Origin: Salinarchaeum sp. Harcht-Bsk1
GTDB lineage: Archaea > Halobacteriota > Halobacteria > Halobacteriales > Salinarchaeaceae
Length of the DNA stretch: 40,000 nucleotides
Assembly: GCF_000403645.1 (NCBI RefSeq)
Contig: NC_021313.1
Location: 1,281,014 to 1,321,013 of the forward strand
Direction: 5' to 3'
In this document: positions 23,017 through 40,000 of the stretch, one piece after another
How positions within the stretch are numbered: position 1 is the stretch's first letter
How the letters are laid out: the number at the start of each line of letters is the position of its first letter
Made by a program: the position numbers and the translations under genes
Notes under the pieces: model-generated
Database searches by the model: none
The model's input: only the letters and a program-made list of their open reading frames with translations
What the model was told of the DNA's origin: nothing

Positions 23017-23294
23017 CAAAGAACCTGTGTAGTAACTCTATGCGACACCTCAATTAACCTCTCGCTCCAGAAAGCGTAAAAATTCTATCAATACTGAGAT
23101 GCCGATGGAGCCGATATGTCAGTAAACGCTGCCACTCAAAGCGAACTGGAAAGGCGCACCAGCAACCGTGACGATGACCGACAACACTGGAGACAACACT
23201 GTTGGGTCTGTATCGGGCGTTACAAATAGCGCCACAGCGACTTTCCAGGGGTTCCGGAAGCAGATACAGAAGAAACTGGATGCACGGGAAGGTT

Positions 23295-24697: not shown

Positions 24698-27674
24698 AGT
24701 ACTGACTCACCTCCTGAAAATACGGGGCAAAGGAAGACGACGATTCCTCTGTCTCGAAATCGATTTCGTTGAACGACTCGATAACCTCGTGCTCGATAAG
24801 TTTGTACTCGACCAGCATTTTGTGGATCGCGTCCTGTGTCGACGTGCCTAAGGTGTCGAGACATAGCCGGCTGGCAGCGACCACCTCGTCCACCTCGGCC
24901 TGGCTATACGAATCAAACTGTAGTAGCGACTCGTACAACGAGCGGTCCACCTCGTAGTTATCCAAGACGTCGACATTGTCGTGGATCCGCTCCATATCGA
25001 TACCTCCCAGTTCATTTTGAGCCGTCCGGGCCGTCGTGTAATCCTGTATCTGGTCTTCCTGCTGATCCAGTGACTTCTGCATCCGATACGCCTTGGTCAC
25101 CATCTCGACCAGTTTCGTGTCGGAATCAAACCGGACACGCGAGCTCAATCCCTCCGGGTCAGCACGGAGTCGGCTCAACACGTCCTGTGGCTCATTATTG
25201 GAGAACCACCGACGGAGACGGGGGAGATCCAATGTGGTGTCATTAATGGCATGACGCTCTGCGACAAGTGCATCGAACGCCTCCGCATACTCCATGAACT
25301 CCTGAATGTGATCCAGTGCTTCAGGAGCCAGTTCCTCGGTCAGTGCTGTCTCTAATGTCGTGTCCAAGGCGTAGTCTTCACCGCTGGCGAACCGCTCGTT
25401 CAAGGTTGGTGCCGTCACCTCTTGCCACGGATCGTCCAGCACGACGATCCAGGCATATGCTGCTAGGACGTAGTCGTCGAATCCGTACGGTGGATCGTAC
25501 TTGTAGTAGACCGAGGTGTCCTCGATATACTGCTCCCTGACTTTGGCCCGCCACTGCCGGGCATACTCCGTCAACTGGCCACCGACCAACGTGAGGACCC
25601 GTTGCTCGTCAGCGCTGGCATCCGCCTCGTCTATTCGGATCCCGTATTTCAGTAGTTCGCGGATATCAGACCGCTGAAAATCCTGTGGACCAAGCACGAT
25701 TTGGCCCGGAGCAGGCGATGATTCAGCAGAGGGGTATACGAACGGGTCATCCGACCGGCTGAGGTTGTACCTGAGATCGCAGTCCGTCCACAGCGAGTAA
25801 TCCTGCGTCAACGTATTGATGAGGTCGGCAAATGCAGTTCGCAGGTAAGTGTCCGTCTCGACGTATGATTCGTCCTGCGGGTTGGCGTACCAGTTGTCCA
25901 CGTAGCCGCTCTGCTCGTTGATGAGGCGCTCGATACGACTCAACCCTCCGCCATCACCGCCTCCTTCAGTTTCCTCATCGTCTCCACCTGTCTCCTCCTC
26001 GTCTTCGCCGGTTTCACCCGGCTCCGTCTCTTCATCATTTGGTGGAATATACTCGACACCGGGAATCTTGACGTGATCATCCAGCAATTCGATGTTTGCC
26101 GGAAGCTCGTCCGCTGCCGGGTTCTCGGGGAGCAGCCCGAATGCTTCGAGGAAGGCCCGGTCAACGGCGATGTATTCGTCGTATCGGTCGGTATCGCCGT
26201 ACCATTTGGCGACGTGGGCGAAGACTTCGGCTTCCTGGTAGACGTCGTCGTGGGCTGCGACCCGGTTTGTCACATGGTTCAGCGGGCTTGCCGTGGCGGG
26301 ACACGTGGCTGTCCCGTTGAAGTATTCGAGCACGGTCTCGAAGACGACGATGATCAGTTCACGAGGGGACTGCTCGCTCTCATCAAGGCCGGTGTAGATC
26401 CGTTCGATAAACTGCTGGTTGAAGGGGAACAGGTCGCGGAAGCTGTCGTCGCACAGTCCACACCTTGCGCACAGGGAGTCCGGCTCCGGGTCCAGCAAGG
26501 TGAAGTCGCCGGCGTCACGGTCGTAGCGGACGCTGCCATCGTGGTGCTTGATGTAGCCGAGGTACGGACGGATGAAGTCAACAGCCGTCTCGTCGTCAAG
26601 AAAGAGGACCTGGTTGGAGTTCTGTTTGTTCGTCCGGTAGAACCGGAACCGGTCCTCAGCAGTCCGTTTGTGGAGGATGGCCGTTGAATCACGGGTGCCA
26701 GCGACGATGAAATCCCAGTTATCACCGGGGTTGTCGCGTTCCATGAAGTTGCGGAGCTGCCGCGCCTGCATCCCTGTGATCGAGAAGTCCTCGAAGACAG
26801 CGACCGGCCGTTTGTCACCGTATTCCTCTTTGAATTTCTCACCGACTTCTTCCAGCAGATCCGTCAACGGTGGGGTATCGTACTGGTCGAGTAGTGCCTG
26901 CCAGAACCCGCTGCTCAGTTTCTCCGCTGGATGCCCCTCGAAGGCGTCGGCGCCCTCGTCGAAGACCTGCAGGTAGCTATTCTGTTCGTATTCTTGCTCG
27001 GTCACCAAGTTCGGTTCATCGCCGTACTGCCGAGGCTCGACTAATCGGTCGCGGATCCGTTCCGCCACGAATTCGACGATAGCGTCCTCTTGGTCCGGTG
27101 TCGTCGAGGTAGCATAGCCGTCCCATCCAATCTCCAGCAACGCAGTGTAGACGGCCTGGCTTGCGACCATCCGCGGCCGCTGTTTGATATCATCTTCAAG
27201 CCGCTTGAACCGGGACGAGGTCTCCAACGTCTCGTCGAAGTGGTCCTGGTAGAAGTCCGGGATGTCCTCGGTCAGCATCGACATTAAGTCCGTGTCTTTG
27301 TTGACGCGGAGGATCGGACGGTCAGCGTCGTTCTCTAATCGGTGGTTGAGCGCAACGCAGAGTTCCGATTTCCCGGTTCCGACCTCGCCCTCGATGACGA
27401 CGGCGAAGTTCTTGTTGCGGCTTCCGGAGAAATCCTGGTAGACATCGTCCTCCGTGACGACTCGTTCCTCATCGGTTTCCAGCGATGGGCCTTCGACACC
27501 GCCTTCGATCTGGAAGAGTTCGATCGGGCGATGGGTAAACCAGAACAGGTCCGGATTCTCGGCGCGGACGGCAGCAACCCGGCTGAACAGGCTACGCAGG
27601 TCGGACTCGTCCTTTTCGTGGAAGTGTGGGCAAAACAGATCGTCGGGAGAGGAGGATGCAGTTTCGCTACTCAT
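24681..27674 (-). CDS. large P-loop NTPase, unknown family
   Basis: 997 aa. Walker A VVIEGEVGTGKSELC near residue 100 and candidate Walker B RPVAVFEDFS near residue 290. An acidic low-complexity linker (EETEPGETGEDEEETGGDDEETEGGGDGGG) is followed by a long alpha-rich C-terminal half. ATGA overlap with the upstream gene. Confidence 0.7.
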   Translation of the reverse strand: MSSETASSSPDDLFCPHFHEKDESDLRSLFSRVAAVRAENPDLFWFTHRPIELFQIEGGVEGPSLETDEERVVTEDDVYQDFSGSRNKNFAVVIEGEVGTGKSELCVALNHRLENDADRPILRVNKDTDLMSMLTEDIPDFYQDHFDETLETSSRFKRLEDDIKQRPRMVASQAVYTALLEIGWDGYATSTTPDQEDAIVEFVAERIRDRLVEPRQYGDEPNLVTEQEYEQNSYLQVFDEGADAFEGHPAEKLSSGFWQALLDQYDTPPLTDLLEEVGEKFKEEYGDKRPVAVFEDFSITGMQARQLRNFMERDNPGDNWDFIVAGTRDSTAILHKRTAEDRFRFYRTNKQNSNQVLFLDDETAVDFIRPYLGYIKHHDGSVRYDRDAGDFTLLDPEPDSLCARCGLCDDSFRDLFPFNQQFIERIYTGLDESEQSPRELIIVVFETVLEYFNGTATCPATASPLNHVTNRVAAHDDVYQEAEVFAHVAKWYGDTDRYDEYIAVDRAFLEAFGLLPENPAADELPANIELLDDHVKIPGVEYIPPNDEETEPGETGEDEEETGGDDEETEGGGDGGGLSRIERLINEQSGYVDNWYANPQDESYVETDTYLRTAFADLINTLTQDYSLWTDCDLRYNLSRSDDPFVYPSAESSPAPGQIVLGPQDFQRSDIRELLKYGIRIDEADASADEQRVLTLVGGQLTEYARQWRAKVREQYIEDTSVYYKYDPPYGFDDYVLAAYAWIVVLDDPWQEVTAPTLNERFASGEDYALDTTLETALTEELAPEALDHIQEFMEYAEAFDALVAERHAINDTTLDLPRLRRWFSNNEPQDVLSRLRADPEGLSSRVRFDSDTKLVEMVTKAYRMQKSLDQQEDQIQDYTTARTAQNELGGIDMERIHDNVDVLDNYEVDRSLYESLLQFDSYSQAEVDEVVAASRLCLDTLGTSTQDAIHKMLVEYKLIEHEVIESFNEIDFETEESSSSFAPYFQEVSQYYVGDQ

Positions 27675-28519
27675 GACGTGATAACGATGGAGTTCGCCGA
27701 TTGTTCGCGGCGGTCGTGCGTCGGCATCCGGTCAAAGGCGACAGCACCTTGATCACCGATCTCTGCCAGGCGGATCCGTTCCTCGTTCATCAGTTGGTAG
27801 AGAGAACGGCTGAGGATGGCAGGCACACCGCCAGTGTCTTCTGGAAGGTAGAGCAGGTTGTTCGACAGCCAATCCAGATACGTCGGTACCTCGATGACGG
27901 GGTTGCCGTCGACCGTTCGGCCAGCGGCGTTATGTGCCCGTTTGATCGAGTGGTAGATGAGCGACGGGTCGGGGTAGACGGTGAACTCGTGCGTTTCATA
28001 CTGGTGGAGCAGGCCAAGGTAAGTGGCGAGGCGGCCCCAGTTTTCCATCTTGTTCGGGTTCAGGTCGAGCCGGTCACCACGGTACGTCGGGTAGTACTCC
28101 AAGGTGTCGCGTTCCCAGCGGTCCATCTGCTTCCTGACCGCTTCGTCTTTGTCGTTAATCCGCTGGTAGTCTTCCTTGATGAGGTACGCGTAGTTCAAGT
28201 GGAGGACGGCTTGCTTCCCCCAATCAGGCGGTGTAAGAGATGACGCAAGATTTTCTAACGCGGTCAACTGGAAGTCCAGTATCTCATCGCCCGTCGACCA
28301 CGTGTAGTCACGGACGGTGTACTCTTCGTCTTTGGAATCAAGCAGCCCTAACCGCAGTAACCCCTTTGCTCCTTCATCAACGGCATCAGCACTCAGCCCG
28401 GTATCGTCGACAATTTCATCCTCAGTCGTATTGCCGCGGTTGACTGATTCGTAGACCGGTTTGAGTGACCTGGGATTCTGGATGGTGTTGAGAAGATATC
28501 CCTGGTCAGGATCTGTCAT
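27671..28519 (-). CDS. hypothetical protein (possible N-terminal winged helix)
   Basis: About 282 aa from ATG 28519, which gives a TAATG overlap with the upstream stop (the track ORF starts at GTG 28540). TTEDEIVDDTGLSADAVDEGAKGLLRLGLL looks HTH-like. No family recognised. Confidence 0.5.
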   Translation of the reverse strand: MTDPDQGYLLNTIQNPRSLKPVYESVNRGNTTEDEIVDDTGLSADAVDEGAKGLLRLGLLDSKDEEYTVRDYTWSTGDEILDFQLTALENLASSLTPPDWGKQAVLHLNYAYLIKEDYQRINDKDEAVRKQMDRWERDTLEYYPTYRGDRLDLNPNKMENWGRLATYLGLLHQYETHEFTVYPDPSLIYHSIKRAHNAAGRTVDGNPVIEVPTYLDWLSNNLLYLPEDTGGVPAILSRSLYQLMNEERIRLAEIGDQGAVAFDRMPTHDRREQSANSIVITS

Positions 28520-29415
28520 TATGGACTCCGTTGTAGCCACGCTTTGTAAGTTTGCCCTAGAGGAGTCGAATCGAGGTTACGTGCTTCGCGCCGCGCATCG
28601 CTCATCGACGCATCTTGGGCGACAGCGGCTGGATCGAATGCACGCGTGTTGTCCGCAACCGTAGAATTCAGAGAACGTACCACTCTCATCGCTGTCGAGG
28701 AGTCCCATTCGATACGGCGGCGCAGCCACGAGGCCAGGTTCTGCAACGCGTCATCTTTCTTGGGGCTGGTGCCAGGCCCGTCGTGGCTTTGGAAAGCAGC
28801 TGCAATCGCGTCGTACAGTGGGAGATACGGTGCATCGTTCAACAGCGAGAAGAGTTCGGTCGTCTGTGTCACGGTTTCACCGGCTACACGTTCATACAGG
28901 ATGGCGTTGTCTTGGAGGAAGACGTTCTGTGTGTCGGTAAGCGGGAAATCGAAGCCCTGGTCGTTGTACCACTGGTTCAAGGCATCATACACATCGTCAT
29001 AGGGGCGTTGTGCGATGGCGAAGGGTTCGTGGTAGAGCGGGCGCAGACCTTGCTGGGTTTGGAACTGTTTCTCATCCGCAACGACGACCATCGTCCCCAT
29101 CTCCTGCCATCGGTTGATCAGGCCGCCGATCGAATGCTGCGTTTCATCCTCGTAGTACTGCGTCGTCAAGGCCGCCAACATTTGCTCCTCGTACTCGATG
29201 TTCTGGAGCAAACTGTACTCATAGGAGAACAAGCCCCGTCCATCGCCGCTCTGAAGCTGCCGCCACCTCCAGGGATATGTGAATTCTTCTATACCAAGCC
29301 GATTGAGCGCTGGCAGACAGCGGAGAAGCCCAAACTGTGACCGTTGCTCAGTCGTGTCGTGGATGAGAAACACGCCCTGCTTAGAGAGGAACGATTGGAG
29401 CGTCTCCCACTTCAT
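28519..29415 (-). CDS. hypothetical protein
   Basis: 298-aa ORF with ATG start, 37 bp downstream of helicase 1 and coupled to the next gene. No motif recognised. Confidence 0.5.
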   Translation of the reverse strand: MKWETLQSFLSKQGVFLIHDTTEQRSQFGLLRCLPALNRLGIEEFTYPWRWRQLQSGDGRGLFSYEYSLLQNIEYEEQMLAALTTQYYEDETQHSIGGLINRWQEMGTMVVVADEKQFQTQQGLRPLYHEPFAIAQRPYDDVYDALNQWYNDQGFDFPLTDTQNVFLQDNAILYERVAGETVTQTTELFSLLNDAPYLPLYDAIAAAFQSHDGPGTSPKKDDALQNLASWLRRRIEWDSSTAMRVVRSLNSTVADNTRAFDPAAVAQDASMSDARREARNLDSTPLGQTYKAWLQRSP

Positions 29416-29452
29416 CGATACTGCCTCATCATCTGTAACTGGGGAACAACGG

Positions 29453-32400
29453 TCATGGCGTTTGTCCTACTGCCTCCGCGAGCAGCGTCCTGTTCAGCAG
29501 GTCGTTGTCCAGATACGTAGCTGGTGTCCGCTCGATCAAGAGACAGTTCTCACAATAGCCGCTACATTCGTCACAATCAATCACGTTTCGGACCTCGTCG
29601 ACGATAGCGTCCAAGTGTCGGTCGACCTGTGTCGCAATCCCGTTGCCACCCTGCCGATTATCGACGATGTAGACGCGAATCTCGTCGCCCGTCGCCGTCA
29701 CCTTCACGCGGAAATCGTCTTGATCACTCTGGGTTTCGACGGCAACCGCTTTCGTTAACGCTTGTTCTAAGCTGATGAACAGTTGGGGCCACACTGCCTC
29801 GTCTTCCTGTTCCAACGCCTCATCCGGAAGTCGATCAGCCACCGCTGCCTGGTCGAACGTGAGACAGATCCCCTGTGTTACGTACTGCTTCCCGACAGGC
29901 GCGTACCGGGCATCGTCGCTGTCAGGAATCCGTGCTTCAGACCGTTTGATCTCTTTCCCGGATCCCATCGTGTGCCGCCGCTCGAATACCGGGATAAAGT
30001 CAATCACATCGTAGCCGCCGACCGCTACGTCACAGGAGAGGCCGAATACCGTGGTTTCTTCGCCTGCGGTTCTTTCGCCACGACTCGTGACGTGGGTCGT
30101 CATGATGGGCGAGGTACTGTATAAATCTTCGAACTGGTGGGCTTTCCGACAGTTGACTGCCTGAACGCCGTGGACTGAAATCGCATCTAACGGGTTGCCG
30201 CAGTGTGGACATTGCTCTGCTGCTGTCCGGTAGCTTTCGAACGGCCGGGTACAGTCCTCGTTGGTGCAAATCGCCACCGTCTGTAACGGTTCCTTCGTGC
30301 CTTCGACGTCCGACACCAAGTAGGTTGAGCCGTACAGGGTCATCACTGCCCCTCGCTCATTTTCCTCACCAGGGTAGAAGTCGTAGAGGCGGCCGTCACC
30401 TTGGAACGAGATGCTTTCACTGCTGCCTTCGAACTGGACAGGGAACTGTTGGCCGAACTCGCGATAGTTCGCCAAGTAGCCCAGTCGGTTGAGCCAGGAA
30501 TCCAATCGGTCATTCCCGTTTCGCACGTCGTCGAGATCGGTGCTGTCACTGAAGCTGCGGAACTGGCCACAGGTTTGCTGTGTCCGTTGCCGGAAACTCA
30601 CCGGGCCGTCACTGTTGAAAACCGCGTCGAAGACCTCCAAACCACGTTGCCCGAACACGGCCCCGATATGGTCCCGTAACCGGTCCGTCACGTCGTCGCG
30701 GACAAAGGTGCGTAGCTCGTCAAGGTTGGCTTCCACACGGTCGGCGAACTCGGCCACAGAGTCGACCGACTGATTAATCTGGTAGGTCTCCTCGAACGTG
30801 TCACTGGGATGCGGGTTGCGGGCGAGATAGGCGACGACTTCGGTCACTACGTGGCCGGCCAGGACTTCGTCGAAGTCGAACGGGTCCGGAACACGGACAG
30901 GGTCGAAGCTGCCGAAGAAGCGATCCAGGTCGTCGTAGTAGTGTGCGTCGACAGGATGGGTGCCGCGGACCGTGGTGGCTACCAAGGATTCGCTGCCGCG
31001 CGTCCGCCCGGTGCGGCCGCTGCGTTGCACGTAGTTAGTCAAAGTCGGCGGTATCCCGACCTGTGCCACTGAATCCAAGGTGCCGATGTCCACACCGAGT
31101 TCCATCGTCGGAGTCGCGCTGACGATGTTGATGTCCGGATCTGATTTCCGGAACCCCTCCTCAATGGCGCTCCGAAGTGTCGGTGGGACGTCCCCCTTGT
31201 GGATTCCTACCGTGATGAAGTCCAACTCCATCATCTCGACCGTGTCGCGCGGTACCGGTGGCCCTTCACTCGGGATGAGAGGCGCAAGGATATCGTGGCC
31301 CCAGTGATCGACCGGGTACTCCCAGTCTGTCTCGACGTCTGCCCAGCCGAGGAGGGTCATTGAGCCGTCGTCCTCGACACGGAACCGTTGGTGGACGTCG
31401 ACCGTATTTCCGCAGGTCGGGCAATGGTCAAGGCCGTCATCGTGACGGGGAACAGGTGACGCCGTGTAACAGTCGTTGCAGAACGTTACCTGGGGAACCA
31501 GTTGGAGGTCCGTCTTACTCGCGTAGTCGTGGACGGTGAAGATACCGCCGCCGACATCACTATAGCCGTCACGTGCTTCCAGACCGTCAATTTGGTCTTC
31601 GATGTACTCGAAGACATCGTCCTCAGTTGCTTCATCCTTCCCCGCGTTGAGTATCGTGTCCCGTACGCCATCCCACGTTTTGAGTTCAAACACGTCGCCG
31701 TCTAGCAACCCCTGCAACACGTCGTCGACAACCTCGTCGATTTCCTCTTCGGTGAATCGTGTCTCAGACTCGAGCTTGTTGACCAACCGCTCCCGGGTGT
31801 ATCCCTGGAACTTGATTCCGTGTTTCTGGAACTGGGGCGGGAACCGGCTGACGAAGAGATTGAACACCTCGTGGCCGATTGCCGCGGTCTTCGGATCGGG
31901 ACAGGTGTGGACCCATGCAGGGGTGACAAGCGCTGCTTCACGGAGATGCTGGCACTGGGAGAGCCGTGCGTTCGGCTCGATTTCGTTCCACAGCTCAACG
32001 AGAATATCGTTCGCATCCGTTTCCCGGTCCGGTGTGTTCTGTCGCAGTGGCTGCCAGTACTTCTCCCGCAGTGTATCCAATACCGGGTAAAACAGTGACC
32101 GGGCCTCAGCTCGGCCACCTTCCTCGATCAACTGCTTCACGTACAGCGTCTCAGCGGTTAACCCGTACTCCGTCCCGATGATTTCGTTGCTGACCGATTC
32201 AGCTGTCGACCGTGAATCAGAGAAGACCAACGTCTTCTCGGACGGCATCGACCGGCACAGCGACGTCAACATGAACGAAAGCAGGGTCGGCGTCGGCACC
32301 GTGATATCGGTCAACCGGAGCCGCAACGTCGTACAGCCAGGACACGGACCGTCCGTCCCGCCGCCGTAGACCGGTTGAAACACCTCGTCGTCCTCGTCTT

Positions 32401-34183
32401 CGTTTTCGGTGTCGGCTTCGACGAACGGGTGGTGGCAGGTCCTGCAGAACCGGAGTTCCCGTGTCTGGTGGCCCTCGGGACAGGACCGGCCACGGGTCAC
32501 TTCCTCGCATGTCTGGCACCAGTAGACCTTCCGCGGCGGTTTGGCGAACATGTGGTACTTCGCCGTCACCATCCCGGCTGCCCGGCCCAAGGCAAGCAAT
32601 GCTGACACCGCTTCATCCGGGTTCGACGCACCTGCTTTCTCAATCCGGTTCACGAGGTCAGCGTAGTGTTCGAACTCAACCTCGGTGGTCGACTCGTCCA
32701 TGAACCACGATGCAACAGTCGCGACTTCCGGAACCGTATCACGGATAAACTGGAACCATCTGCCGCCGAGATCGCCGTGCTCGACCACCTGTTCCGTCAA
32801 GGTATCCAGTTCCTCGGGGGCTATCCCGGGCGCAGTCCCTCCGTTCTGGACAGCTCCCGCGGTGTTGTCTTCCTGTTCGGTGTCGATGCTGTCAGCTATG
32901 GGGGCGAACACCCAGTCTCGGTGCTGGTCTGGCACCGTCAACGGGTCTGGCCCTGCCAAGAGTCCAATCTCCTCCAACGTGGTGACGGCACCGGTCAACT
33001 GTGGATAGCTGCCGCAGAACGTCTCCCGGTCAACGTCGTGGCGTTCGGTGAGGACGAGTGTTTCCACGACGTCGCGGAGTGAACACTCCGCAAACCGGTC
33101 GAAATCAGTCGCCCCGGTGACCGGGAAGTCGCGGGCGGTGAACCCGAGCTCGTTGACATCGTCTCTATCCGTCCCGGTCAGGGCGGATGCCAGGTCGCTG
33201 GGGTTCTCGATGGTGGCGGAGACCAGCGTAACCTGTGGATCATGTGCTGCGTAAAACTGTTTGAGACGGCGAGTGAGCAATCCGATACTTGACCCGGATA
33301 TCCCGCTCCACACGTGGGCTTCGTCGAAAACCACGTGTTGAACTGGGCTTTTCTCCGGGCCTTGACCTAGGATATCACGGGTGGCCTCGTTGTCGCTGAC
33401 GAACATATAGTCGAGCGCATCCGGGTTCGTCAGGAGGATGTCGACCCCGTCACGGATCTGCTCGCGAGTGATCTTGAGCCACGGATACGTCCAGTCATCG
33501 CTGCCCGGTGTCCCATCGCTGGTCACCCGTAAATCGTCCTGGGTGCGGGGACACTCGAGGCCACGGACGTTGGCACCGATATCCAGGTCGTAGTCACGCG
33601 GTCCGACTGCCGCCGGCGTATCCCGGTCCCAGATCCCGATGGTAACGCGGTCTTCGCGTGGTAGTTCCTGGTTCACCGTGTCAATGTAACGGAGGAACCG
33701 ATTGAGCTGGTCGACACCCAGCGTCTTCATCGGATAAATGACGATCGCTTTCAACCCGTTGTCGTCCGTCGCCACACAGTCATTGAGTACTGGGAGGAAG
33801 AACGACTCCGTTTTCCCGGTCGCTGTCGGCACAGCCAAGATGTTGTCGTCAGGATCCGTCTCGATAGCCTCGATCGTGTCTACCTGGTGCTGATAGAGCG
33901 ACCCGGCACGGTCCCCACCGAACAACTCGTCGACGACCGCGTCGACAACCCGTTCATCGTAGCCATACTGCTCCAGTAGCTCGGCAGCTGGCCGCTCCGC
34001 TGTGGCTGGCGGTGAGACAAATTCGAGATACGGGCCTTTGGTATCCACCAGTTCGTTTGAAACGAAGGAAGTAGCGTTGGTAACGCCTGAAATACGGTTG
34101 AGCTTGGTAAGTTTTCGATTCCACCACGTGATCTCGGAGGCGCGATCAGTGGCGGTGGCAAACGCGTTCAACGGGGATGGCAT
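29453..34183 (-). CDS. giant SF2 DEAH-type helicase with Zn-ribbon insertions and a DUF1998 (MrfA/DrmB-type Zn-binding)-like C-terminus
   Basis: 1576 aa. Motifs in order: LYQHQ (Q), AVPTATGKTE (I), VIYPMKTLGVDQ (Ia), ILLTNPDAL (Ib), VVFDEAHVW (II), LVSATIENP (III), TLVFSDSRS (IV), VSATPTMELGVDIG (V), YVQRSGRTGR (VI). Inserted ribbons CQTC..C..H, CRTC, CPGC, CNDC..CPTC, CTNEDC..CPHC. C-terminus DNRQGGNGIA...CDECSGYCENC. Confidence 0.85.
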   Translation of the reverse strand: MPSPLNAFATATDRASEITWWNRKLTKLNRISGVTNATSFVSNELVDTKGPYLEFVSPPATAERPAAELLEQYGYDERVVDAVVDELFGGDRAGSLYQHQVDTIEAIETDPDDNILAVPTATGKTESFFLPVLNDCVATDDNGLKAIVIYPMKTLGVDQLNRFLRYIDTVNQELPREDRVTIGIWDRDTPAAVGPRDYDLDIGANVRGLECPRTQDDLRVTSDGTPGSDDWTYPWLKITREQIRDGVDILLTNPDALDYMFVSDNEATRDILGQGPEKSPVQHVVFDEAHVWSGISGSSIGLLTRRLKQFYAAHDPQVTLVSATIENPSDLASALTGTDRDDVNELGFTARDFPVTGATDFDRFAECSLRDVVETLVLTERHDVDRETFCGSYPQLTGAVTTLEEIGLLAGPDPLTVPDQHRDWVFAPIADSIDTEQEDNTAGAVQNGGTAPGIAPEELDTLTEQVVEHGDLGGRWFQFIRDTVPEVATVASWFMDESTTEVEFEHYADLVNRIEKAGASNPDEAVSALLALGRAAGMVTAKYHMFAKPPRKVYWCQTCEEVTRGRSCPEGHQTRELRFCRTCHHPFVEADTENEDEDDEVFQPVYGGGTDGPCPGCTTLRLRLTDITVPTPTLLSFMLTSLCRSMPSEKTLVFSDSRSTAESVSNEIIGTEYGLTAETLYVKQLIEEGGRAEARSLFYPVLDTLREKYWQPLRQNTPDRETDANDILVELWNEIEPNARLSQCQHLREAALVTPAWVHTCPDPKTAAIGHEVFNLFVSRFPPQFQKHGIKFQGYTRERLVNKLESETRFTEEEIDEVVDDVLQGLLDGDVFELKTWDGVRDTILNAGKDEATEDDVFEYIEDQIDGLEARDGYSDVGGGIFTVHDYASKTDLQLVPQVTFCNDCYTASPVPRHDDGLDHCPTCGNTVDVHQRFRVEDDGSMTLLGWADVETDWEYPVDHWGHDILAPLIPSEGPPVPRDTVEMMELDFITVGIHKGDVPPTLRSAIEEGFRKSDPDINIVSATPTMELGVDIGTLDSVAQVGIPPTLTNYVQRSGRTGRTRGSESLVATTVRGTHPVDAHYYDDLDRFFGSFDPVRVPDPFDFDEVLAGHVVTEVVAYLARNPHPSDTFEETYQINQSVDSVAEFADRVEANLDELRTFVRDDVTDRLRDHIGAVFGQRGLEVFDAVFNSDGPVSFRQRTQQTCGQFRSFSDSTDLDDVRNGNDRLDSWLNRLGYLANYREFGQQFPVQFEGSSESISFQGDGRLYDFYPGEENERGAVMTLYGSTYLVSDVEGTKEPLQTVAICTNEDCTRPFESYRTAAEQCPHCGNPLDAISVHGVQAVNCRKAHQFEDLYSTSPIMTTHVTSRGERTAGEETTVFGLSCDVAVGGYDVIDFIPVFERRHTMGSGKEIKRSEARIPDSDDARYAPVGKQYVTQGICLTFDQAAVADRLPDEALEQEDEAVWPQLFISLEQALTKAVAVETQSDQDDFRVKVTATGDEIRVYIVDNRQGGNGIATQVDRHLDAIVDEVRNVIDCDECSGYCENCLLIERTPATYLDNDLLNRTLLAEAVGQTP

Positions 34184-34369
34184 TGACCGTACGAAGGGAG
34201 AGATGGCGACCCCTCAATAAGACTTTGCGTCATTCCTCCCACACAATTCAGTTGCCGATGAGTCTTTCGTCGAGAGGCAAAGTTATTCAAATTGACCCCT
34301 GTATCTCTTCAGCATACGAATCGATGACACGTTCTCCAACTGGCTGGCGGATCATCTCCCAAGCCACGA
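34184..34369. promoter_or_regulatory. divergent promoter region between the two giant helicase genes
   Basis: 186-bp gap between divergent ATGs, less GC-rich than the coding flanks, with the A/T box aaagttattcaaatt. No operator repeat could be defined by eye. Confidence 0.3.
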
Positions 34370-37300
34370 ATGCAATATAGCGACGATACAACGAACCCTG
34401 ACCGTATCCCGGACGAGGTCCGTCCTTTAGTCCGCGGGATGTTGTTCAATCGCCAGCTGCTCGGCACTGATCACGACGGCGCTCCTGTGACCGATGCTGT
34501 CAAATACACGAGCGAAGCGCAGAAACGGCGGTTGGCCACCCCATATGACGGCGATGACCCGTTCGTCGACGAGATTATCGATATTTTTGGCTTCAACCCG
34601 CTCGATTTTCAGGTCGACAGCTGGCAGCTGATCAACGACTTCCATCAGCAACGACACGACACTGGGGAGCCACATGCCGCCATCCTATCGGCTCCGACCG
34701 GGTTTGGGAAGACAGAAGCATTTCTCGGCCCGCTGTACCAACAGCTGCGGAACGGTGAGCAGGACACCACGGTCATTGTCTATCCACGCCGGGCACTCCT
34801 CCAAGACCAGCTCGGCCGCATCCTGCAGCACATCCACTCCATGCGTCCCGCCGGCGAGCAGGCACCGCTCTCCGTTGGTGTCTACATGGGTGGTATGCCC
34901 TACAACGTGGAGGACGTCCGCGATGACTATTTCGAATCCGAGAACGGACGGGAGACGTTCCAATTAGCGCACTGCTGGTGCGGCGATGAAACAACGACAA
35001 ACGCGTTCACCTATGACGGGAGTTCGAACTCCTACACCATTCGCTGTGAAGCGGACGATACCCACAGTTTCACCAACAACGAACTCGTCTTAAGCCGCCA
35101 GCAGATTAAGGATGGGGAAACCCCGGACATCCTGTTAACCACGTTGGAAGCGCTGGAACTCTTTGCGCTCAAACCCAACTACGACATCGTCGACGACGTT
35201 GACACGTTCGTCCTGGACGAGGTCCACCTGTACACCCGGCTTCGTGGCGCGCACGCAGCGAAGATCATTGGTAACATTAACGACATCACGGAACAGCCCC
35301 TGCTCTGGATCGGGGCGAGCGCCACCATCGATAACGCCGACCGGTTCATCCGGAAACTCTTCGACTTCCCCTCCGGCCGTTTAGCGACGGTCGACGTTCC
35401 TGAGTCCGACCTCAAACAGGACCACGACGACCAGGAGCACTACTACTTCCTGTTATCACCGGAGGATGGGCCGGGTGCCTCCTCCATGATGATCCAGCAA
35501 CTGTTGTTGATCGGGCACGGCCTCCTTCGCGACACCGACGGCAACGAGGGCAAAGCCCTGTCCTTCATCGACAGCATCAGTCAGGTCAATCAGAAGAACG
35601 ACCAGCTCGACGACGCCGAACGCGGCGACGGCCAAGGCGAGCCACCCTTGTGGCACCACCATACCGATCGGTCGCCGCGCGGCCAGCAACCGGCTAATCC
35701 GGAAGCCGATTGGGCCGACATCGCCGACGCCATGGGCTACGACTTCATCGAGGATCGCGCCCTCGACTTCCTCCCCGTCTACTCCCAAATCGGGTTCGAC
35801 GCGGAGGACGCCGCTGACAGCGATATCTTCCTATCAACCTCGTTCCTCGAAGTCGGTATCGACATCGGGGAGATCAAGCACGTCACCCAGTACCGGACCC
35901 CGCAGAACCTGTCCTCCTTCGTCCAGCGGACCGGCCGCGCCGCCCGGGAAGAAGGCATGGACGCCCACATCTTCGTCTTCCTCTCCAATCTGACGAACGA
36001 TGCCAACATGTTCTACCGGGCGGACCGCTTCCTCAGCTCCGAACTCCGCACCCCCCTCAAACCAGACAACGACGTTATCGAGTGGATCCATACTACCCTC
36101 AACACCTACTACACTCGAGCCAGCGACATCGATGATCGTCGTATCCGCCGCGGTGAAGAAGCAACTTTCCTTGAGGAATTCCTCACCCAGGACAAGCAAT
36201 ACCAGGAGTTCTACCAGTTGCTGCTCAATCCCAGCGACTTCCTCCTCGCTGAATTCGGCATCGACGAAACCGTCGAACCCCTTACCACGGAGGCAGGAAT
36301 CGAAACCTTCCGTGACATTATCAACCGACGGGAAGCCGAGCTGGAAGAGGAGTTCGCGGAGGTCGAAGACCTGATCAATATCGACAGCGGTGACATCACC
36401 CGCAGCGATAATGCATTCGAACAGTACGTCGACGAAGTCAGGCAACGCACCCTCGAAGTCATCAGCCACTACGTCGAGATTGTCGATCAGTACCAAGACC
36501 ACGTCGACGGTGGCGATGCCCCTGACCTCGTTGACGACCTGAACGAGCTCTACGACGAATTCGAGGAGCTACGCGAGGAGGCCCGTGACGGCTACCGCGG
36601 TGCTGAGACCGAACGCGTCGAACAGTATGAACAGCTCTTCGGCAGGATCATCTCCGCAGTCGGCGACCTCACGGGGCTTCGCGCACAGGTCAACATCCAC
36701 ATCGATGACCGGCCCGAGGATGTCTCCCTTGACCGGATCACTGATCTCAGTGACGCCGTCGAGATCCTAGGTTCAATCGCCGGTGACGGCCGACTCGAGG
36801 AGAACATCGACGAACGCTACCAGATCAACTACCTACGCCGCGTCCTCGACCAACTCGGAGAGTACCGCGATCTTGAACGAGACCCTGACAACCGGGTGAA
36901 CCGGCCGCATATGAGCCTCCACTACGTGAAGCATTTGCTCCGTGCGGCCTATTACCTCCACCGCTACCTCCAGGTCACCGACCGAACCTACAGTGACGAA
37001 ATTTGGTACGTGCCTCCGTCGTACTTCGACAACAGCGGCCAGTTCTTCACCGTTGTTGATCCTGATGGATTCGACGACGAGGAAACCATCGATAGTCTCG
37101 TCCACACTAATGCACCGTACCGCAGTGAATTCCAAAACGAATCCACCAATCTCCACGTCTTCCTCCCTGAGACCGAGGTCGAGAGCTACGGGGAACAGCC
37201 GACGGGCAATGAGGTCCAGTTCGACTTCAGCGACATCCCCGGCGACCAGCGGAACGGGATGCTGGTCCCGGACTCCATCCAGCTCACAGAAATCCCTGAC

Positions 37301-38533
37301 GTCACCGGGCAACGCGCGCTCAACATCGTTGCCTACTGCCCGCAGTGCCTCACCTTGCTTGATGATCAACGGTGCGTCCGGCACAACGAGATTGCGTGGG
37401 GCAAGGTCCATGCCGAACCCCAGGTCCGGACCGTCGCCCGCGACACCGACGTCGAGGCCGCGACCGGCAGCCTCGCGCTCGCCGGACTCCGCGGCCAAGT
37501 CACCCTGGATGGAGTCTCTCTCGACATCACACCGGCCCGGCCGATGGGTGACATGGGCATCCAGTTCACCGGTGACGACCGCATCCAACGCGAAATCGAC
37601 AGCCCGGACACGCCGCTCGGCTTCGACCTGAAGACCCGCGGCCTAATCTACGATCTCACCGACTTCATCGACTACGTCGAGGACAACGAGGACCTCATCG
37701 CTGACGTCGCCCGGTACAAGAACCTGGACGGGGTCCCGATCGACGAATTAGCGTACCATACAGCCGCTCACTTCTTCCTCCACTTGGTCGCGGACGTCGG
37801 TGGTGTCAACCCGTCCATGCTGTTCTACGGCCTGGATCCCGAGGAAGGGATCGTGTTCATCTTCGAACGGACGGAAGGTGGCCAAGGGATCGTCGACCTC
37901 GTTTATGACGAACTGGAGAACGATCCCGGCACTCTGCTCGAATCACTGGTCCGTATTACCTACAACACGCAGGTCATCAACGAACAACTCTGGGCAAATC
38001 CCGATTTCGTCGAGGACCTACCTGAGCGCGGCGTCGATGAAGACGCTGTCCAACACTGTGTAGACACGCATCTCGACGAGCAGCTTGACATGGTCTTTCC
38101 CGAAATCCGGGACGAAGTGGTGCAGGAGGTGTTGTCGACCTGTGACCGGGCCGCCCAGCTCAGCGACGAGGAAAGCATCCCTCTCCGTGACGCCTACACC
38201 GTGAAGCACACCGTGGCGGATGCCCAGCTGGATGGCGCCGATACGTTCCCTGAGGGACGCGTTGATGCACTCAACGTTGACCTGGATGAGCTGCACCGTA
38301 TCGAATCACTGTTCTTCTCCCCGGATATCGACGGCTGTGTCGAAAACCTGCACACCGGGGAATGCATCTCTGGCCACGATCAAGAGGAAGTCCTGAGCCA
38401 CGTCTTGTTGCAGGAACTCCGCCACCACCTCGTTGACTTCGTGGACACCGACGACGCTGTCGATGAAATGTTTGACCGTGAGCAAGTTCCCGCAGGAGAA
38501 ATCAATGACACGAGCATTTACTTTACCTTCTAA
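34370..38533 (+). CDS. giant SF2 DEVH-type helicase, paralogous architecture to helicase 1, with DUF1998-like C-terminus
   Basis: 1387 aa. LSAPTGFGKTEAF (I), VIVYPRRALLQDQ (Ia), ILLTTLEALE (Ib), FVLDEVHLY (II), IGASATIDN (III), LSTSFLEVGIDIG (V), FVQRTGRAAR (VI). Zn motifs CWCGDE...C...H and CPQC...CVRH. C-terminus FERTEGGQGIV...CVENLHTGECISGH. Confidence 0.85.
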   Translation: MQYSDDTTNPDRIPDEVRPLVRGMLFNRQLLGTDHDGAPVTDAVKYTSEAQKRRLATPYDGDDPFVDEIIDIFGFNPLDFQVDSWQLINDFHQQRHDTGEPHAAILSAPTGFGKTEAFLGPLYQQLRNGEQDTTVIVYPRRALLQDQLGRILQHIHSMRPAGEQAPLSVGVYMGGMPYNVEDVRDDYFESENGRETFQLAHCWCGDETTTNAFTYDGSSNSYTIRCEADDTHSFTNNELVLSRQQIKDGETPDILLTTLEALELFALKPNYDIVDDVDTFVLDEVHLYTRLRGAHAAKIIGNINDITEQPLLWIGASATIDNADRFIRKLFDFPSGRLATVDVPESDLKQDHDDQEHYYFLLSPEDGPGASSMMIQQLLLIGHGLLRDTDGNEGKALSFIDSISQVNQKNDQLDDAERGDGQGEPPLWHHHTDRSPRGQQPANPEADWADIADAMGYDFIEDRALDFLPVYSQIGFDAEDAADSDIFLSTSFLEVGIDIGEIKHVTQYRTPQNLSSFVQRTGRAAREEGMDAHIFVFLSNLTNDANMFYRADRFLSSELRTPLKPDNDVIEWIHTTLNTYYTRASDIDDRRIRRGEEATFLEEFLTQDKQYQEFYQLLLNPSDFLLAEFGIDETVEPLTTEAGIETFRDIINRREAELEEEFAEVEDLINIDSGDITRSDNAFEQYVDEVRQRTLEVISHYVEIVDQYQDHVDGGDAPDLVDDLNELYDEFEELREEARDGYRGAETERVEQYEQLFGRIISAVGDLTGLRAQVNIHIDDRPEDVSLDRITDLSDAVEILGSIAGDGRLEENIDERYQINYLRRVLDQLGEYRDLERDPDNRVNRPHMSLHYVKHLLRAAYYLHRYLQVTDRTYSDEIWYVPPSYFDNSGQFFTVVDPDGFDDEETIDSLVHTNAPYRSEFQNESTNLHVFLPETEVESYGEQPTGNEVQFDFSDIPGDQRNGMLVPDSIQLTEIPDVTGQRALNIVAYCPQCLTLLDDQRCVRHNEIAWGKVHAEPQVRTVARDTDVEAATGSLALAGLRGQVTLDGVSLDITPARPMGDMGIQFTGDDRIQREIDSPDTPLGFDLKTRGLIYDLTDFIDYVEDNEDLIADVARYKNLDGVPIDELAYHTAAHFFLHLVADVGGVNPSMLFYGLDPEEGIVFIFERTEGGQGIVDLVYDELENDPGTLLESLVRITYNTQVINEQLWANPDFVEDLPERGVDEDAVQHCVDTHLDEQLDMVFPEIRDEVVQEVLSTCDRAAQLSDEESIPLRDAYTVKHTVADAQLDGADTFPEGRVDALNVDLDELHRIESLFFSPDIDGCVENLHTGECISGHDQEEVLSHVLLQELRHHLVDFVDTDDAVDEMFDREQVPAGEINDTSIYFTF

Positions 38534-38948
38534 CGAACTCGCCTACTTCATCGGGTACACCCTGATCCACGCCGACAGGGTCGTTCTCGTCTCGCCGTGG
38601 CTGAGCGACGTCGAACTCCGCTTCCCGGTGAACGACCAGACTTCCAGCCGCGAACTCCTGCTCTCCAAAGCCGTCGCCGAACTCACCGACACTGACATCA
38701 CTTTCCTCATCAACGGCAACGAAGACCACAACGACTACATCAAATCCCGTGTCGAACGGAACGCCGAAGTCGTTGACGTCCCCGACCTCCACGCCAAAGC
38801 CGTCATCACTGACGACTGGGTCTACGCCGGCTCCGCCAACATCACCCGCCGCGGCCTCCTCGTTAACCGCGAGCTCTGCAAAATTGTCACCAACACCCAC
38901 CCAGACGCCAATACTTACGTCGAAGAAGAGCTCAGCGTGGACCTATGA
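38505..38948 (+). CDS. PLD-superfamily (single HKD, Nuc-like) nuclease
   Basis: 147 aa from ATG 38505, overlapping the helicase-2 3' end by 29 nt. HKD motif DLHAKAVITDDWVYAGSANITRRG (HxK...D...GSxN). Confidence 0.8.
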   Translation: MTRAFTLPSNELAYFIGYTLIHADRVVLVSPWLSDVELRFPVNDQTSSRELLLSKAVAELTDTDITFLINGNEDHNDYIKSRVERNAEVVDVPDLHAKAVITDDWVYAGSANITRRGLLVNRELCKIVTNTHPDANTYVEEELSVDL

Positions 38949-39025
38949 AAACTGCCATCAATTATCGCAATTACTATTGGAAAAGCTGTATCCACGGGAG
39001 GAAAGTTCAGTTAAAAAAAATAGCC

Positions 39026-39201
39026 AGCCCAAACCCGCTGCTTTTGCCGGCTGCGGTCAATGATGGGCTATGAGCGACGCGGACGGGCCCAAGCAGGTCG
39101 ACGACCCCGACTATCACAACGTCAACCACACGGCAGCGCAGACCTGTGGGTGGACGAAGAACGCACTTACAGGAGATGGAACGTGTTACAAGCACGCCTT
39201 C
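39026..39201 (+). repeat. attR: right imperfect direct repeat (taw1 promoter region plus codons 1-44)
   Basis: Counterpart of 5657..5832; see attL. Confidence 0.8.
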
Positions 39202-40000
39202 TACGGCATCCGCTCGCACCGATGCATCCAGATGACGCCTGTCGTCAAGTGCAACGAGCGCTGCGTCTTCTGCTGGCGCGATCACGCCGGCCACGCCTAC
39301 GAACTCGAGGGCGTCGAGTGGGACGACCCCGAGGCGGTCGTCGACGCCTCGATCGAACTCCAGCGAGAACTCCTCAGCGGCTACAAGGGCAACGACAACG
39401 TGCCCGACGACCGCTTCGAGGAGGCGGTCGAACCCCGCCACGTCGCGATCTCGCTCGACGGCGAGCCGACGCTGTATCCCTACCTCCCCGAACTGATCGA
39501 GGCGTTCCACGACCGCGGCCTCACCACGTTCCTCGTCTCGAACGGCACCCGTCCGGAGGTGCTCGCGGAGTGCGACCCGACGCAGCTCTACGTCTCCGTG
39601 GACGCGCCGGATCGCTGGACCTTCGACCAGACCGTCAAGGCCGTCGAGGACGGCGCCTGGGAGCAGTTGATCGACACGATGGACGTCCTCGCTGAAAAGG
39701 ACGAGACGCGGACGGTCCTCCGGACGACGCTCGTCGACGGCCACAACATGCGCGATCCGGACTGGTACGCCGCCTTCTACCAGCGAGCGGATCCGGACTA
39801 CGTCGAACTCAAGGCCTACATGCACGTCGGGCACTCCCGCGGCCGGCTGGATCGCTCGAACATGCCCGAGCACGAGGACGTGGTGGCGTTCACGGAGGAC
39901 GTGATGGAGCACATGCCCGAGCACGACGTGCTGAAAGACCGACCGCCGTCGCGGGTCACCCTGATCTCCCGCGAGGAGGACACCTGGGTGCCGAAGCTCC
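39070..40000 (+). CDS. taw1: tRNA 4-demethylwyosine synthase (radical SAM, TYW1/Taw1), 3' end outside window
   Basis: Absent from the ORF track (no stop in window). Own translation from ATG 39070: MSDADGPKQVDDPDYHNVNHTAAQTCGWTKNALTGDGTCYKHAFYGIRSHRCIQMTPVVKCNERCVFCWRDH...ISLDGEPTLYPYLPELI...LVSNGTRPE...ELKAYMHVGHSRGRL. It has the N-terminal auxiliary-cluster Cys region and the C-x3-C-x2-C radical-SAM motif typical of archaeal Taw1. Confidence 0.9.
   Translation, partial: MSDADGPKQVDDPDYHNVNHTAAQTCGWTKNALTGDGTCYKHAFYGIRSHRCIQMTPVVKCNERCVFCWRDHAGHAYELEGVEWDDPEAVVDASIELQRELLSGYKGNDNVPDDRFEEAVEPRHVAISLDGEPTLYPYLPELIEAFHDRGLTTFLVSNGTRPEVLAECDPTQLYVSVDAPDRWTFDQTVKAVEDGAWEQLIDTMDVLAEKDETRTVLRTTLVDGHNMRDPDWYAAFYQRADPDYVELKAYMHVGHSRGRLDRSNMPEHEDVVAFTEDVMEHMPEHDVLKDRPPSRVTLISREEDTWVPKL

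Follow-up and report, generated by a model that had tools for sequence, protein, structure and literature searches.

Two YprA-family helicases and a DpdK-like nuclease as the probable restriction half of a BRIGADE Type I system in Salinarchaeum sp. Harcht-Bsk1

BRIGADE Type I was described computationally in 2025 from halophilic archaea (Bell et al., bioRxiv 10.1101/2025.09.15.676423). [quoted passage not shown] The canonical bacterial Dpd system comprises dpdA-K (Thiaville et al. 2016; PMC10164549); the Enterobacter pPOL9A locus (L037) served as our bacterial Dpd example. In the YprA family, the helicase core is normally fused to the OB-CON-DUF1998 module, DISARM being split (10.1101/2025.09.15.676423). 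The window analyzed here is a 40,000-nucleotide stretch of Salinarchaeum sp. Harcht-Bsk1, which contains defence-type YprA/DUF1998 helicases and a DpdK/DrmC-like PLD protein within a 7-deazaguanine gene island. As judged from profile comparisons, the locus is of a known system type and matches the BRIGADE Type I description point by point. We consider it probable that this region encodes the restricting half of a BRIGADE Type I, Dpd-like 7-deazaguanine restriction-modification system.

The first helicase, Hel1, is 1576 residues in size (WP_081638656.1) and is encoded on the minus strand at 29453–34183; the second, Hel2, is 1387 residues (WP_081638657.1) and is encoded on the plus strand at 34370–38533. 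Both giant ORFs are present as the initial annotation had reported, and so are the divergent gap of 186 bp between them (34184–34369) and the 29-nt overlap between Hel2 and the 147-residue PLD gene (38505–38948, plus strand). The intergenic region contains AT-rich TATA-like elements, CTTATTGA, which precedes the Hel1 ATG by about 30–38 nt, and AAGTTATTCAAA, located ahead of Hel2; both are conserved with loci L021 and L001 and are putative promoters. The PLD start is the ATG at 38505, which is preceded 6 nt upstream by an SD-like GGAG; 14 orthologs share the MTRAFxL start.

The full SF2 motif sets, with DEAH and DEVH, that had been read from the two ORFs are borne out. The Hel1 motifs are PTATGKTE (residues 119–126), DEAH (287–290) and QRSGRTGR (1053–1060); those of Hel2 are TGFGKTE (110–116), DEVH (283–286) and QRTGRAAR (519–526), and all of them are invariant in the family alignments. 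Profile comparisons place both proteins in the YprA/MrfA (DUF1998) family. The best PDB sequence match of both family profiles is 6znp (YprA/MrfA), with E values of 4e-36 and 4.5e-22; it is the closest solved-structure relative of Hel1 and Hel2. MrfA, a 3′-5′ ssDNA translocase with a zinc-bound canopy, serves as the mechanistic template. Different from the two helicases, MrfA is of 751 residues, has no inserted zinc modules, acts in repair with the MrfB exonuclease and is not island-borne.

By its profile scores, Hel1 is assigned to the Druantia/ARMADA-like YprA clade. It scored 159 bits (4e-47) against DruE with partial coverage, 92 bits (4.5e-27) against DpdJ and 57 bits against DrmA; in hhalign, the Hel1 family matched Enterobacter DpdJ over 225 columns with an E value of 3.5e-13. 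The MZB/DUF1998 domain is located at residues 1472–1548 (Pfam PF09369, E 7.5e-12), and its canonical Cys4 cluster (C1537/C1540/C1544/C1547) is invariant and aligns with the Cys clusters of MrfA and of DruE (9tu7_Y, residues 1650–1703). Like the Druantia/ARMADA helicases, Hel1 has many CxxC modules; Cys residues conserved in pairs or clusters follow RecA1 (556–584 and 614/617), lie inside RecA2 (902–924) and occur in the OB region (1306–1328). An AF2 model of Hel1 residues 345–990 (pLDDT 83) contains, in order, one helical domain, one Cys-rich beta region, one helical/winged-helix region and Cys hairpins; Foldseek found no significant PDB match for it. BrxA-like, beta-barrel zinc module and MarR-like inserts have been described for the ARMADA-BRIGADE-Druantia lineage (10.1101/2025.09.15.676423). 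Different from Druantia/ARMADA, Hel1 carries no C-terminal nuclease fusion, and it has other operon partners, with no DruA-D, DruH, BrxHII or PglX among its neighbours. We rejected a Druantia reading of the locus, as the DruE match of Hel1 is partial and three of its operon partners (p298, p289 and p230) gave no PADLOC match.

Hel2, in turn, is best described by its profile matches as a DpdJ-like member of the Dpd branch. It scored 176 bits (2.3e-52) against DpdJ, 43 against DruE and 31 against DrmA. In hhalign the Hel2 family matched the bona fide Enterobacter DpdJ with an E value of 8e-35 over 465 columns, the RecA1 zinc module included, and among its best plasmid matches outside haloarchaea most (five of eight non-haloarchaeal records) are PGAP-annotated DpdJ. 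The two giants had been called paralogous; both do belong to the YprA/MrfA family, but they come from different YprA clades, and their BLASTP alignment is confined to the surroundings of the SF2 motifs (84 residues at 33% and 120 residues at 28% identity). Profile-profile comparison of Hel1 and Hel2 is significant over RecA1 only. Zinc modules had also been placed between the RecA lobes of both proteins. For Hel1 this is right for the Cys clusters after RecA1, not for those in RecA2 and the OB region; for Hel2 it does not hold, because its two CCCH modules sit inside RecA1 (C202/C204/C226/H232) and in the OB region (C990/C993/C1002/H1005).

DUF1998-like Cys tails had been proposed for both helicases, and the canonical MZB of Hel1 agrees with this. 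Hel2 gave no Pfam MZB match even at E ≤ 1, nor did any of about 120 homologs; its GGQG motif (1170–1173) is invariant, however, its tail retains only C1323 (28 of 28 sequences), C1332 (25 of 28) and H1328 (23 of 28) and not the Cys4 cluster. Comparing the C-terminal halves of the two helicases by profiles yielded one weak collinear match (E 0.007, probability 5%), too weak to settle the question of the Hel2 tail, for which structure prediction was therefore needed. The AF2 model of Hel2 residues 860–1387 has a pLDDT of 87.8, and its sole significant PDB matches in Foldseek are MrfA (6znp_A, E 6e-6) and DrmB (7s9v_B, E 1e-4). According to this model, Hel2 keeps the OB-CON-DUF1998 fold; the alignment shows that it has lost the Cys4 cluster. 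Loss of Cys4 is likewise reported for DpdJ (10.1101/2025.09.15.676423).

The third protein is, as had been claimed, a single-HKD PLD nuclease encoded directly after Hel2, an arrangement found in all 18 loci with sequence available. Residues H96, K98, G109, S110 and N112 are invariant; PLDc_2 is the only domain in its 147 residues, and it has no 4-helix bundle. Of the two relatives that had been suggested, DpdK rather than DrmC is the best match (HMM 1.9e-14; hhalign E 2e-10), the DrmC matches being weak, and by these scores the protein is assigned as DpdK-like.

The initial annotation had interpreted the three genes as one DISARM-like core with fused and duplicated DrmA and DrmB, the resulting heteromeric translocase handing DNA to the PLD or to a GIY-YIG nuclease. 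DrmAB, DpdJ, Hel1 and Hel2 are indeed all of the YprA family, the Hel2 tail structurally matches DrmB, and the PLD has its weak DrmC matches; DISARM and this locus share the helicase logic of the YprA family, a canopy made of OB-CON-DUF1998 and an accessory nuclease of PLD type. However, none of the DISARM NCBIfam cut-offs was reached (DrmA, 18–22 bits versus 950–999; DrmC, 17 bits versus 133); Hel1 instead matched DruE best, Hel2 DpdJ and the PLD DpdK. Neither DrmD nor DrmE was found, and the Cas11-like 4-helix bundle of the DISARM PLD is missing here. The absence of a methylase noted earlier agrees with our results: no methyltransferase domain was found among the ORFs scanned, although this is not exhaustive because several of those ORFs gave no Pfam match at all. 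DISARM keeps helicase and DUF1998 module apart, whereas the two are joined in this locus; this fusion, which had been called unusual, is the ancestral architecture and the family norm rather than a derived state. Two giants per locus, likewise called unusual, are the defining feature of the already described BRIGADE. Hel1 and Hel2 are not duplicates of each other, and the GIY-YIG gene (17255–17779, plus strand) belongs to the modification module and not to the conserved cassette; a hand-off to it is unsupported. Altogether, we regard the DISARM-like reading as very improbable. The heteromer of Hel1 and Hel2 is speculation; their gene arrangement varies, and in seven of 28 cases no Hel2 lies within 10 kb of the Hel1 operon.

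Hel1 is the first gene of one five-gene operon, Hel1-p298-p289-p997-p230, which we found in 28 haloarchaeal genomes. p298 (28519–29415, minus strand, like all operon genes) is a conserved protein whose gene directly follows Hel1 in each of the 28 haloarchaeal loci, as well as in L027 and L030. p289 (27671–28540) is conserved as well; its position and size are those of DpdG, but comparison with one single bacterial DpdG sequence (hhalign, E 0.016) did not establish homology. p997 (24681–27674) is a DpdH/BrxC-like P-loop NTPase with a Walker A motif, GEVGTGKSE, at residues 96–104; it matched DpdH with an E value of 4.5e-5 over 381 columns in hhalign, and 12 of 23 p997 family members matched DpdH (best 1e-13). 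p230 (24005–24697) is the last gene of the operon, in the position of DpdI. No match was found for p298, p289 and p230 in Pfam, PADLOC, NCBIfam or PDB sequences, and no relative of p997 was found in the PDB. Likewise, hhalign against single bacterial DpdG and DpdI sequences did not establish an equivalent of either among p298, p289 and p230.

The upstream context of the restriction genes is one modification module (14410–23019), all on the minus strand except GIY-YIG. It contains the full preQ0 pathway, QueC (14410–15096), FolE (15093–15701), QueE (15702–16805) and QueD (16478–16939), followed beyond GIY-YIG by one GHKL ATPase (17788–19320), one TGT/DpdA-like enzyme (19313–20575), one DUF6884/YaaA-like protein (20568–21029) and a second TGT, fused to DUF5591 and ArcS-like (21106–23019). 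The DpdA NCBIfam score is 27.3 bits versus a cut-off of 200. The locus is part of an integrated element in the Salinarchaeum sp. Harcht-Bsk1 genome: the GC content of the island is 0.55–0.60, down from 0.70, and a tyrosine integrase, a primase-polymerase and TerL adjoin ArgRS in the window, where no tRNA genes mark an attachment site.

These features agree with BRIGADE Type I in the halophilic archaeal host, in the two YprA helicases, one ARMADA/Druantia-like and one of the Dpd branch by profile scores, in the small PLD nuclease without 4-helix-bundle domain beside the DpdJ-like helicase, in the DpdH/BrxC-like NTPase (p997), and in the adjoining genes for synthesis and insertion of 7-deazaguanine, no methylase having been found. 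Different from the description, the large DNA2-like helicase-nuclease was not seen in the window, and sequence comparison did not demonstrate a DpdG equivalent. The locus also resembles canonical Dpd. Hel2 is similar to DpdJ in the helicase core, the RecA1 zinc module and the lost DUF1998 Cys4; the PLD is similar to DpdK and p997 to DpdH; the locus also has the preQ0 pathway and a DpdA-like TGT, and in same-strand loci the order p289-p997-p230-Hel2-PLD mirrors DpdG-H-I-J-K. However, the NCBIfam equivalog cut-offs are far from reached (DpdJ, 163.6 versus 800; DpdK, 55.2 versus 100), Hel1, which is Druantia-like, and p298 stand in place of DpdE and DpdF, and the GHKL ATPase and the ArcS-like TGT are found instead of DpdB. 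Among the matches listed, there was none to the DpdE, DpdB, DpdC and DpdD models, and those to DpdF were weak and limited to the helicase core.

A scan of 185,579 species genomes with two short conserved motifs yielded 36 loci. Close homologs of Hel1 and Hel2 are all from Halobacteria. In 21 of 28 haloarchaeal genomes, one Hel2 ortholog is located within 10 kb of the Hel1 operon. Hel2 is divergent from the operon in eight loci and in the window, on the same strand and downstream in 11 loci (directly after p230 in nine), upstream on the same strand in one and convergent in one. Deazaguanine genes are located within 10 kb in 18 of 28 loci; the 10 loci without them at this distance, and the seven without Hel2-PLD, count against the BRIGADE Type I assignment. 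The restriction genes form a sharp-edged 15-kb block, with 90% and 83% nucleotide identity between genera; on the left, the 90%-identical cassette ends at the p230 stop. Amino acid identity of the neighbouring TGT and GHKL genes reaches only 44–51%, versus 90% nucleotide identity for the cassette. As suggested by these comparisons, the 15-kb cassette moves as a unit between genera.

The same survey bears on two further readings. The locus could encode housekeeping DNA-repair helicases of MrfA/YprA type and a repair nuclease, with no defence role, as the best PDB match of both helicase families might suggest. We find this hardly credible: the distribution is patchy (the 36 loci of the two-motif scan), the genes reside on a low-GC island bearing an integrase, no MrfB-type exonuclease partner is present, and the helicases are linked to the PLD, to the DpdH-like NTPase, to deazaguanine genes and to other defence genes (McrBC, L017). 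Moreover, the cassette is 88–94% identical across different genera, indicating recent horizontal transfer. Alternatively, two autonomous defence modules, the Hel1 operon (BREX/ARMADA-flavoured) and the DpdJK-like pair, could be merely co-localised, each able to work alone. The varying position of Hel2 relative to the Hel1 operon, the seven operons lacking Hel2-PLD within 10 kb, the five-gene operon without Hel2 ortholog in a Heimdallarchaeum (L030) and the different YprA clades of the helicases would fit such modules, whereas co-occurrence in 21 of 28 genomes and joint travel as one 15-kb block would not, and the mirrored DpdG-H-I-J-K order suggests one system. On balance, autonomous modules appear rather unlikely.

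Taking the region as the restriction half of BRIGADE Type I, modification-dependent restriction is the most reasonable reading of its role, and a deazaguanine-dependent restriction is plausible. FolE, QueD, QueE and QueC would make preQ0; as in bacterial DpdA/B/C, the two TGT/DpdA-like enzymes, probably together with the GHKL ATPase, would replace guanine of the host DNA by a 7-deazaguanine derivative. The 15-kb cassette would then discriminate and restrict unmarked DNA via two sub-modules, the first of Hel1 with its intact, zinc-bound MZB, p298 and p289, the DpdH/BrxC-like NTPase and the 230-residue protein, the second of the DpdJ-like Hel2, translationally coupled to the DpdK-like PLD. By analogy with MrfA, DrmAB and DruE, the helicases may load on single-stranded or end-containing invader DNA and move along it while the OB-CON-DUF1998 canopy holds the strand like a clamp. 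The single-HKD PLD would have to dimerise to form one active site; it is likely the DNA-cleaving effector, recruited by Hel2 in a putative complex. Published work reports that some defence by DISARM and Druantia III-A does not require the PLD; the nuclease of this locus may therefore share the effector role with others.

It is possible, though doubtful, that BRIGADE is not one system confined to halophiles but a composite of an older Hel1 operon, which also occurs outside halophiles, and a separable DpdJK-like pair, the cassette being mobile independently of the modification genes. Such independent transfer would imply that the machinery senses a general lack of 7-deazaguanine instead of a particular derivative or sequence motif. 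Among cellular restriction-modification systems, BRIGADE and Dpd-type systems would be alone in marking self DNA through base exchange instead of methylation. The strain is cultured and its genome complete; the compact 15-kb cassette (24005–38948) and the separate modification module could both be moved into a tractable haloarchaeon.

As a discovery the locus adds little, since the architecture, the DpdJ-like Cys4 loss and the association of PLD and deazaguanine genes are already in the 2025 preprint. The movement of the cassette as a unit is one small addition to the known picture, and the related operon in a Heimdallarchaeum is a second: the five genes of L030 lie on the chromosome, and this Heimdallarchaeum and an uncultured archaeon share a string of genes for 1580, 310, 300–325, 985 and 225 residues beside TGT-like genes. 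At L017, McrBC is among the other defence genes linked to the locus.

The genes of the two giant helicases, Hel1 (29453–34183, minus strand, 1576 aa, WP_081638656.1) and Hel2 (34370–38533, plus strand, 1387 aa, WP_081638657.1), carry no annotation beyond 'DEAD/DEAH box helicase'. Rechecking of the coordinates returned the same ORFs as the initial annotation, with the 186-bp gap between them. The ORF of PLD, the single-HKD nuclease following Hel2, is readable from TTG at position 38433; however, all 14 PLD orthologs have the N-terminus M-[TV]-R-A-F-[ST]-L, and the start was therefore placed at ATG 38505, giving a protein of 147 aa. With this start, the 29-nt overlap between PLD and Hel2 described previously holds, and one GGAG motif is located 6 nt upstream. 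The overlap and the SD-like motif suggest that the synthesis of Hel2 and PLD is coupled.

Both Hel1 and Hel2 contain DEAD and Helicase_C domains (Pfam). The MrfA zinc-binding domain (MZB, PF09369, formerly DUF1998) was identified by Pfam in Hel1 only (residues 1472–1548, E 7.5e-12). In a 21-sequence alignment, Hel1 C1537, C1540, C1544 and C1547 are invariant, as are the cysteine pairs or clusters at 556–584, 614/617, 902–924 and 1306–1328; the MZB aligns with the Cys clusters of two solved structures, MrfA (6znp) and the 2108-aa DEAD/DEAH helicase 9tu7_Y. In Hel2 and ∼120 homologs, MZB gave no score, even at E<=1. The metal ligands conserved in the Hel2 family form two CCCH sets: one lies inside RecA1 (C202/C204/C226/H232), and the other is C990/C993/C1002/H1005. 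Hel2 also has an invariant GGQG motif (1170–1173); its tail retains only C1323, usually C1332 and often H1328. We modelled Hel2 residues 860–1387 with AlphaFold2, using a 36-sequence alignment (pLDDT 87.8, pTM 0.83). The model has exactly two significant PDB matches, MrfA (6znp_A, E 6e-6, 359 columns) and DrmB (7s9v_B, E 1e-4), which identify the Hel2 tail as an OB-CON-DUF1998 module of the DUF1998 type whose zinc cluster has been lost. DUF1998-like tails had been proposed for both proteins; the proposal stands for the Cys4 MZB of Hel1 and for the fold of Hel2, but not for a second Cys cluster in Hel2. The description of the two helicases as paralogous was overstated. BLASTP aligned them only around the SF2 motifs (33% over 84 aa and 28% over 120 aa), and in the hhalign comparison of the family profiles significance was limited to RecA1; at the sequence level, close paralogy is ruled out.

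In the PADLOC ranking, Hel1 scored best with DruE (4e-47), followed by DpdJ (4.5e-27) and DrmA (2e-16). Hel2 ranked DpdJ (2.3e-52) before DruE (3.7e-12), and PLD ranked DpdK (1.9e-14) before DrmC. A tblastn search of 72,556 plasmids with Hel2 returned 12 records. Four are haloarchaeal, including two full-length orthologs; five of the eight others are named 'protein DpdJ' by PGAP (Enterobacter, Agrobacterium, Paenibacillus and two from Nostoc). We also compared family profiles with a canonical Enterobacter dpd locus, which has the order dpdE-F-G-H-[I]-J-K-D-B-A. The Hel2 family matched DpdJ over both RecA lobes and the RecA1 zinc module (E 8e-35, 465 columns), and the Hel1 family matched the same protein with E 3.5e-13 over 225 columns. 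The PLD family matched DpdK (E 2e-10), and the family of p997, a 997-aa protein encoded downstream of Hel1, matched DpdH (E 4.5e-5, 381 columns); 12 of 23 p997 relatives match the PADLOC DpdH model. The window proteins nevertheless widely missed all the NCBIfam equivalog cut-offs for DpdJ, DpdK, DpdA, DrmA and DrmC; they are related to the canonical bacterial families but fall outside them.

These features correspond to BRIGADE, a kind of system already described and reported exclusively from halophilic archaea (Bell et al., bioRxiv 10.1101/2025.09.15.676423). According to that study, BRIGADE combines a 7-deazaguanine cluster, DpdG, DpdHI/BrxC, usually two YprA helicases, and PLD nucleases; Type I has one ARMADA-like and one Dpd-branch helicase, and the small PLD is almost always present. 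In Dpd, DpdJ has lost the DUF1998 Cys4 and kept one RecA1 zinc module, and its partner is a PLD without the 4-helix bundle. Fused OB-CON-DUF1998 is the norm of the family, DISARM being the split exception (10.1101/2025.09.15.676423). The window locus agrees with the BRIGADE description on every testable point. The initial annotation was accurate in most of what it described and right in spirit in recognizing a deazaguanine-linked restriction module, but its DISARM-like label was wrong; the locus fits BRIGADE Type I. We found no experimental work on BRIGADE in the literature, where a 2026 Druantia preprint names it among uncharacterised YprA systems.

A scan at one genome per species gave 36 loci, against which the window proteins were run by tblastn. 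In 28 haloarchaeal loci, Hel1 is followed by p298, p289 and p997 (in the window at 28519–29415, 27671–28540 and 24681–27674, all on the minus strand), and 26 of these loci also have p230 (in the window at 24005–24697, minus strand). Within 10 kb, 21 of the 28 carry a Hel2 ortholog and 18 carry deazaguanine genes. PLD follows Hel2 in all 18 loci with downstream sequence. Eight loci share the divergent arrangement of Hel1 and Hel2-PLD seen in the window; the gap is 106–375 bp in seven of these and 1944 bp in the eighth. In 12 others the pair has the same orientation as the Hel1 operon, being downstream of it in 11 (directly after p230 in nine) and upstream in one, and in one further locus it is convergent. 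Where the pair comes after a co-oriented operon, p289-p997-p230-Hel2-PLD parallels bacterial DpdG-H-I-J-K in order and size (289/997/230/1387/147 versus 291/1068/282/1478/176 aa), with sequence support for H, J and K only. The predicted modification and restriction genes (preQ0, TGT-type, two YprA, NTPase and HKD nuclease) are co-inherited.

By blastn, the block bounded by the stop codons of p230 and PLD (24005–38946, 14.9 kb) is continuous, with 90% nucleotide identity to Haloarcula sediminis and 83% to Halosimplex salinum, and identity collapses sharply on both sides. The adjacent modification genes align with these two loci only in patches of 67–76% nucleotide identity, in different order, and amino-acid identity for TGT and GHKL is no more than 44–55%. 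The restriction cassette thus forms a discrete unit that was transferred recently; Haloplanus rallus and Halorientalis halophila also have relatives of ∼90% identity. The two halves, restriction and modification, seem to move independently of each other. Past PLD, two ORFs of 305 aa (minus) and 211 aa (plus) at 39007–39924 have no family matches; they are not conserved in a 94%-identical Haloarcula locus, which agrees with a cassette edge at ∼38948.

The window also encodes QueC, FolE, QueE and QueD. A GHKL (HATPase_c_3) ATPase and a TGT/DpdA-like gene (17788–20575, minus strand, 510 and 420 aa, with an 8-nt overlap at the TGT start) are neighbours in many related loci. No DpdB match is listed in the window, and the GHKL ATPase may substitute for the DpdB ATPase. 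Between this TGT gene and the second one (637 aa, with DUF5591) lies a 153-aa DUF6884 protein (20568–21029, minus strand) with a weak YaaA/DUF328-like match. DpdC of bacterial Dpd is DUF328-like; by analogy, the DUF6884 protein may further modify the inserted base. The 174-aa GIY-YIG domain protein (17255–17779, plus strand) is flanked by QueD and the GHKL ATPase, which are encoded on the other strand; its gene is not part of the conserved restriction cassette, and nothing supports the nuclease role once assigned to it. Further to the left are ArgRS (3289–5106, minus strand), a tyrosine integrase (5876–7177), a primase-polymerase/D5-type helicase (9333–12026), an HTH protein (12275–12988) and a large terminase (12609–14246); GC drops from 0.70 to 0.55–0.60 along this part of the window, and the window has no tRNA genes. 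Given the integrase, primase-polymerase and terminase beside ArgRS and the GC drop, the defence island appears to lie in or beside an integrated virus-like element.

Homology and context show that the locus encodes the preQ0 pathway together with base-exchange enzymes of the TGT type, two YprA translocases, an HKD nuclease and an NTPase resembling DpdH/BrxC. By analogy with MrfA, DrmAB, DruE and bacterial Dpd, host DNA would bear a 7-deazaguanine derivative; the helicases would engage foreign ssDNA or end-bearing DNA and translocate beneath the OB-CON-DUF1998 canopy; a PLD dimer recruited by Hel2 would cut; and p997 and the small proteins could serve in regulation or sensing. A Hel1–Hel2 heteromer, as initially suggested, goes too far, as nothing supports it.

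The five-gene string also occurs in the Candidatus Heimdallarchaeum endolithica chromosome (L030, 9986–20210) and in an uncultured archaeon (L027, 9980–20184), slightly widening the reported BRIGADE host range. In both, the YprA (1588 or 1581 aa) scores best with DruE and is followed by proteins of ∼310, 300–325, 985 and 225 aa, and TGT-like genes are nearby, including a DpdA-like TGT in L027. L027 also encodes a 448-aa DrmC-like PLD; a UvrD/GajB-like helicase and a Cas4-like nuclease are located upstream in L030.

Several haloarchaeal loci differ in their surroundings. Halosimplex amylolyticum has the Hel1 operon and Hel2-PLD but no deazaguanine genes in the upstream 10 kb (1–10000), which encodes a ResIII helicase, TFIIB, a PIN protein and an 811-aa HNH-repeat/HhH protein; local linkage to modification genes is therefore not universal. 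In Natronocalculus amylovorans, where Hel2-PLD is absent within 10 kb, the stretch upstream of the Hel1 operon (2111–9581) holds McrBC (AAA_5 McrB and McrC) and a second trio of 278/971/247 aa resembling p289/p997/p230 by size and a weak P-loop/STAND match. Halorubrum alkaliphilum, a Halobacteriales MAG and Natronosalvus hydrolyticus encode a distinct ∼1480-aa YprA (10001–14450) with 26–29% identity to Hel1, near GHKL, TGT, QueC and QueE genes and without the p298/p289/p997 operon; this protein may represent the helicase of BRIGADE Type II.
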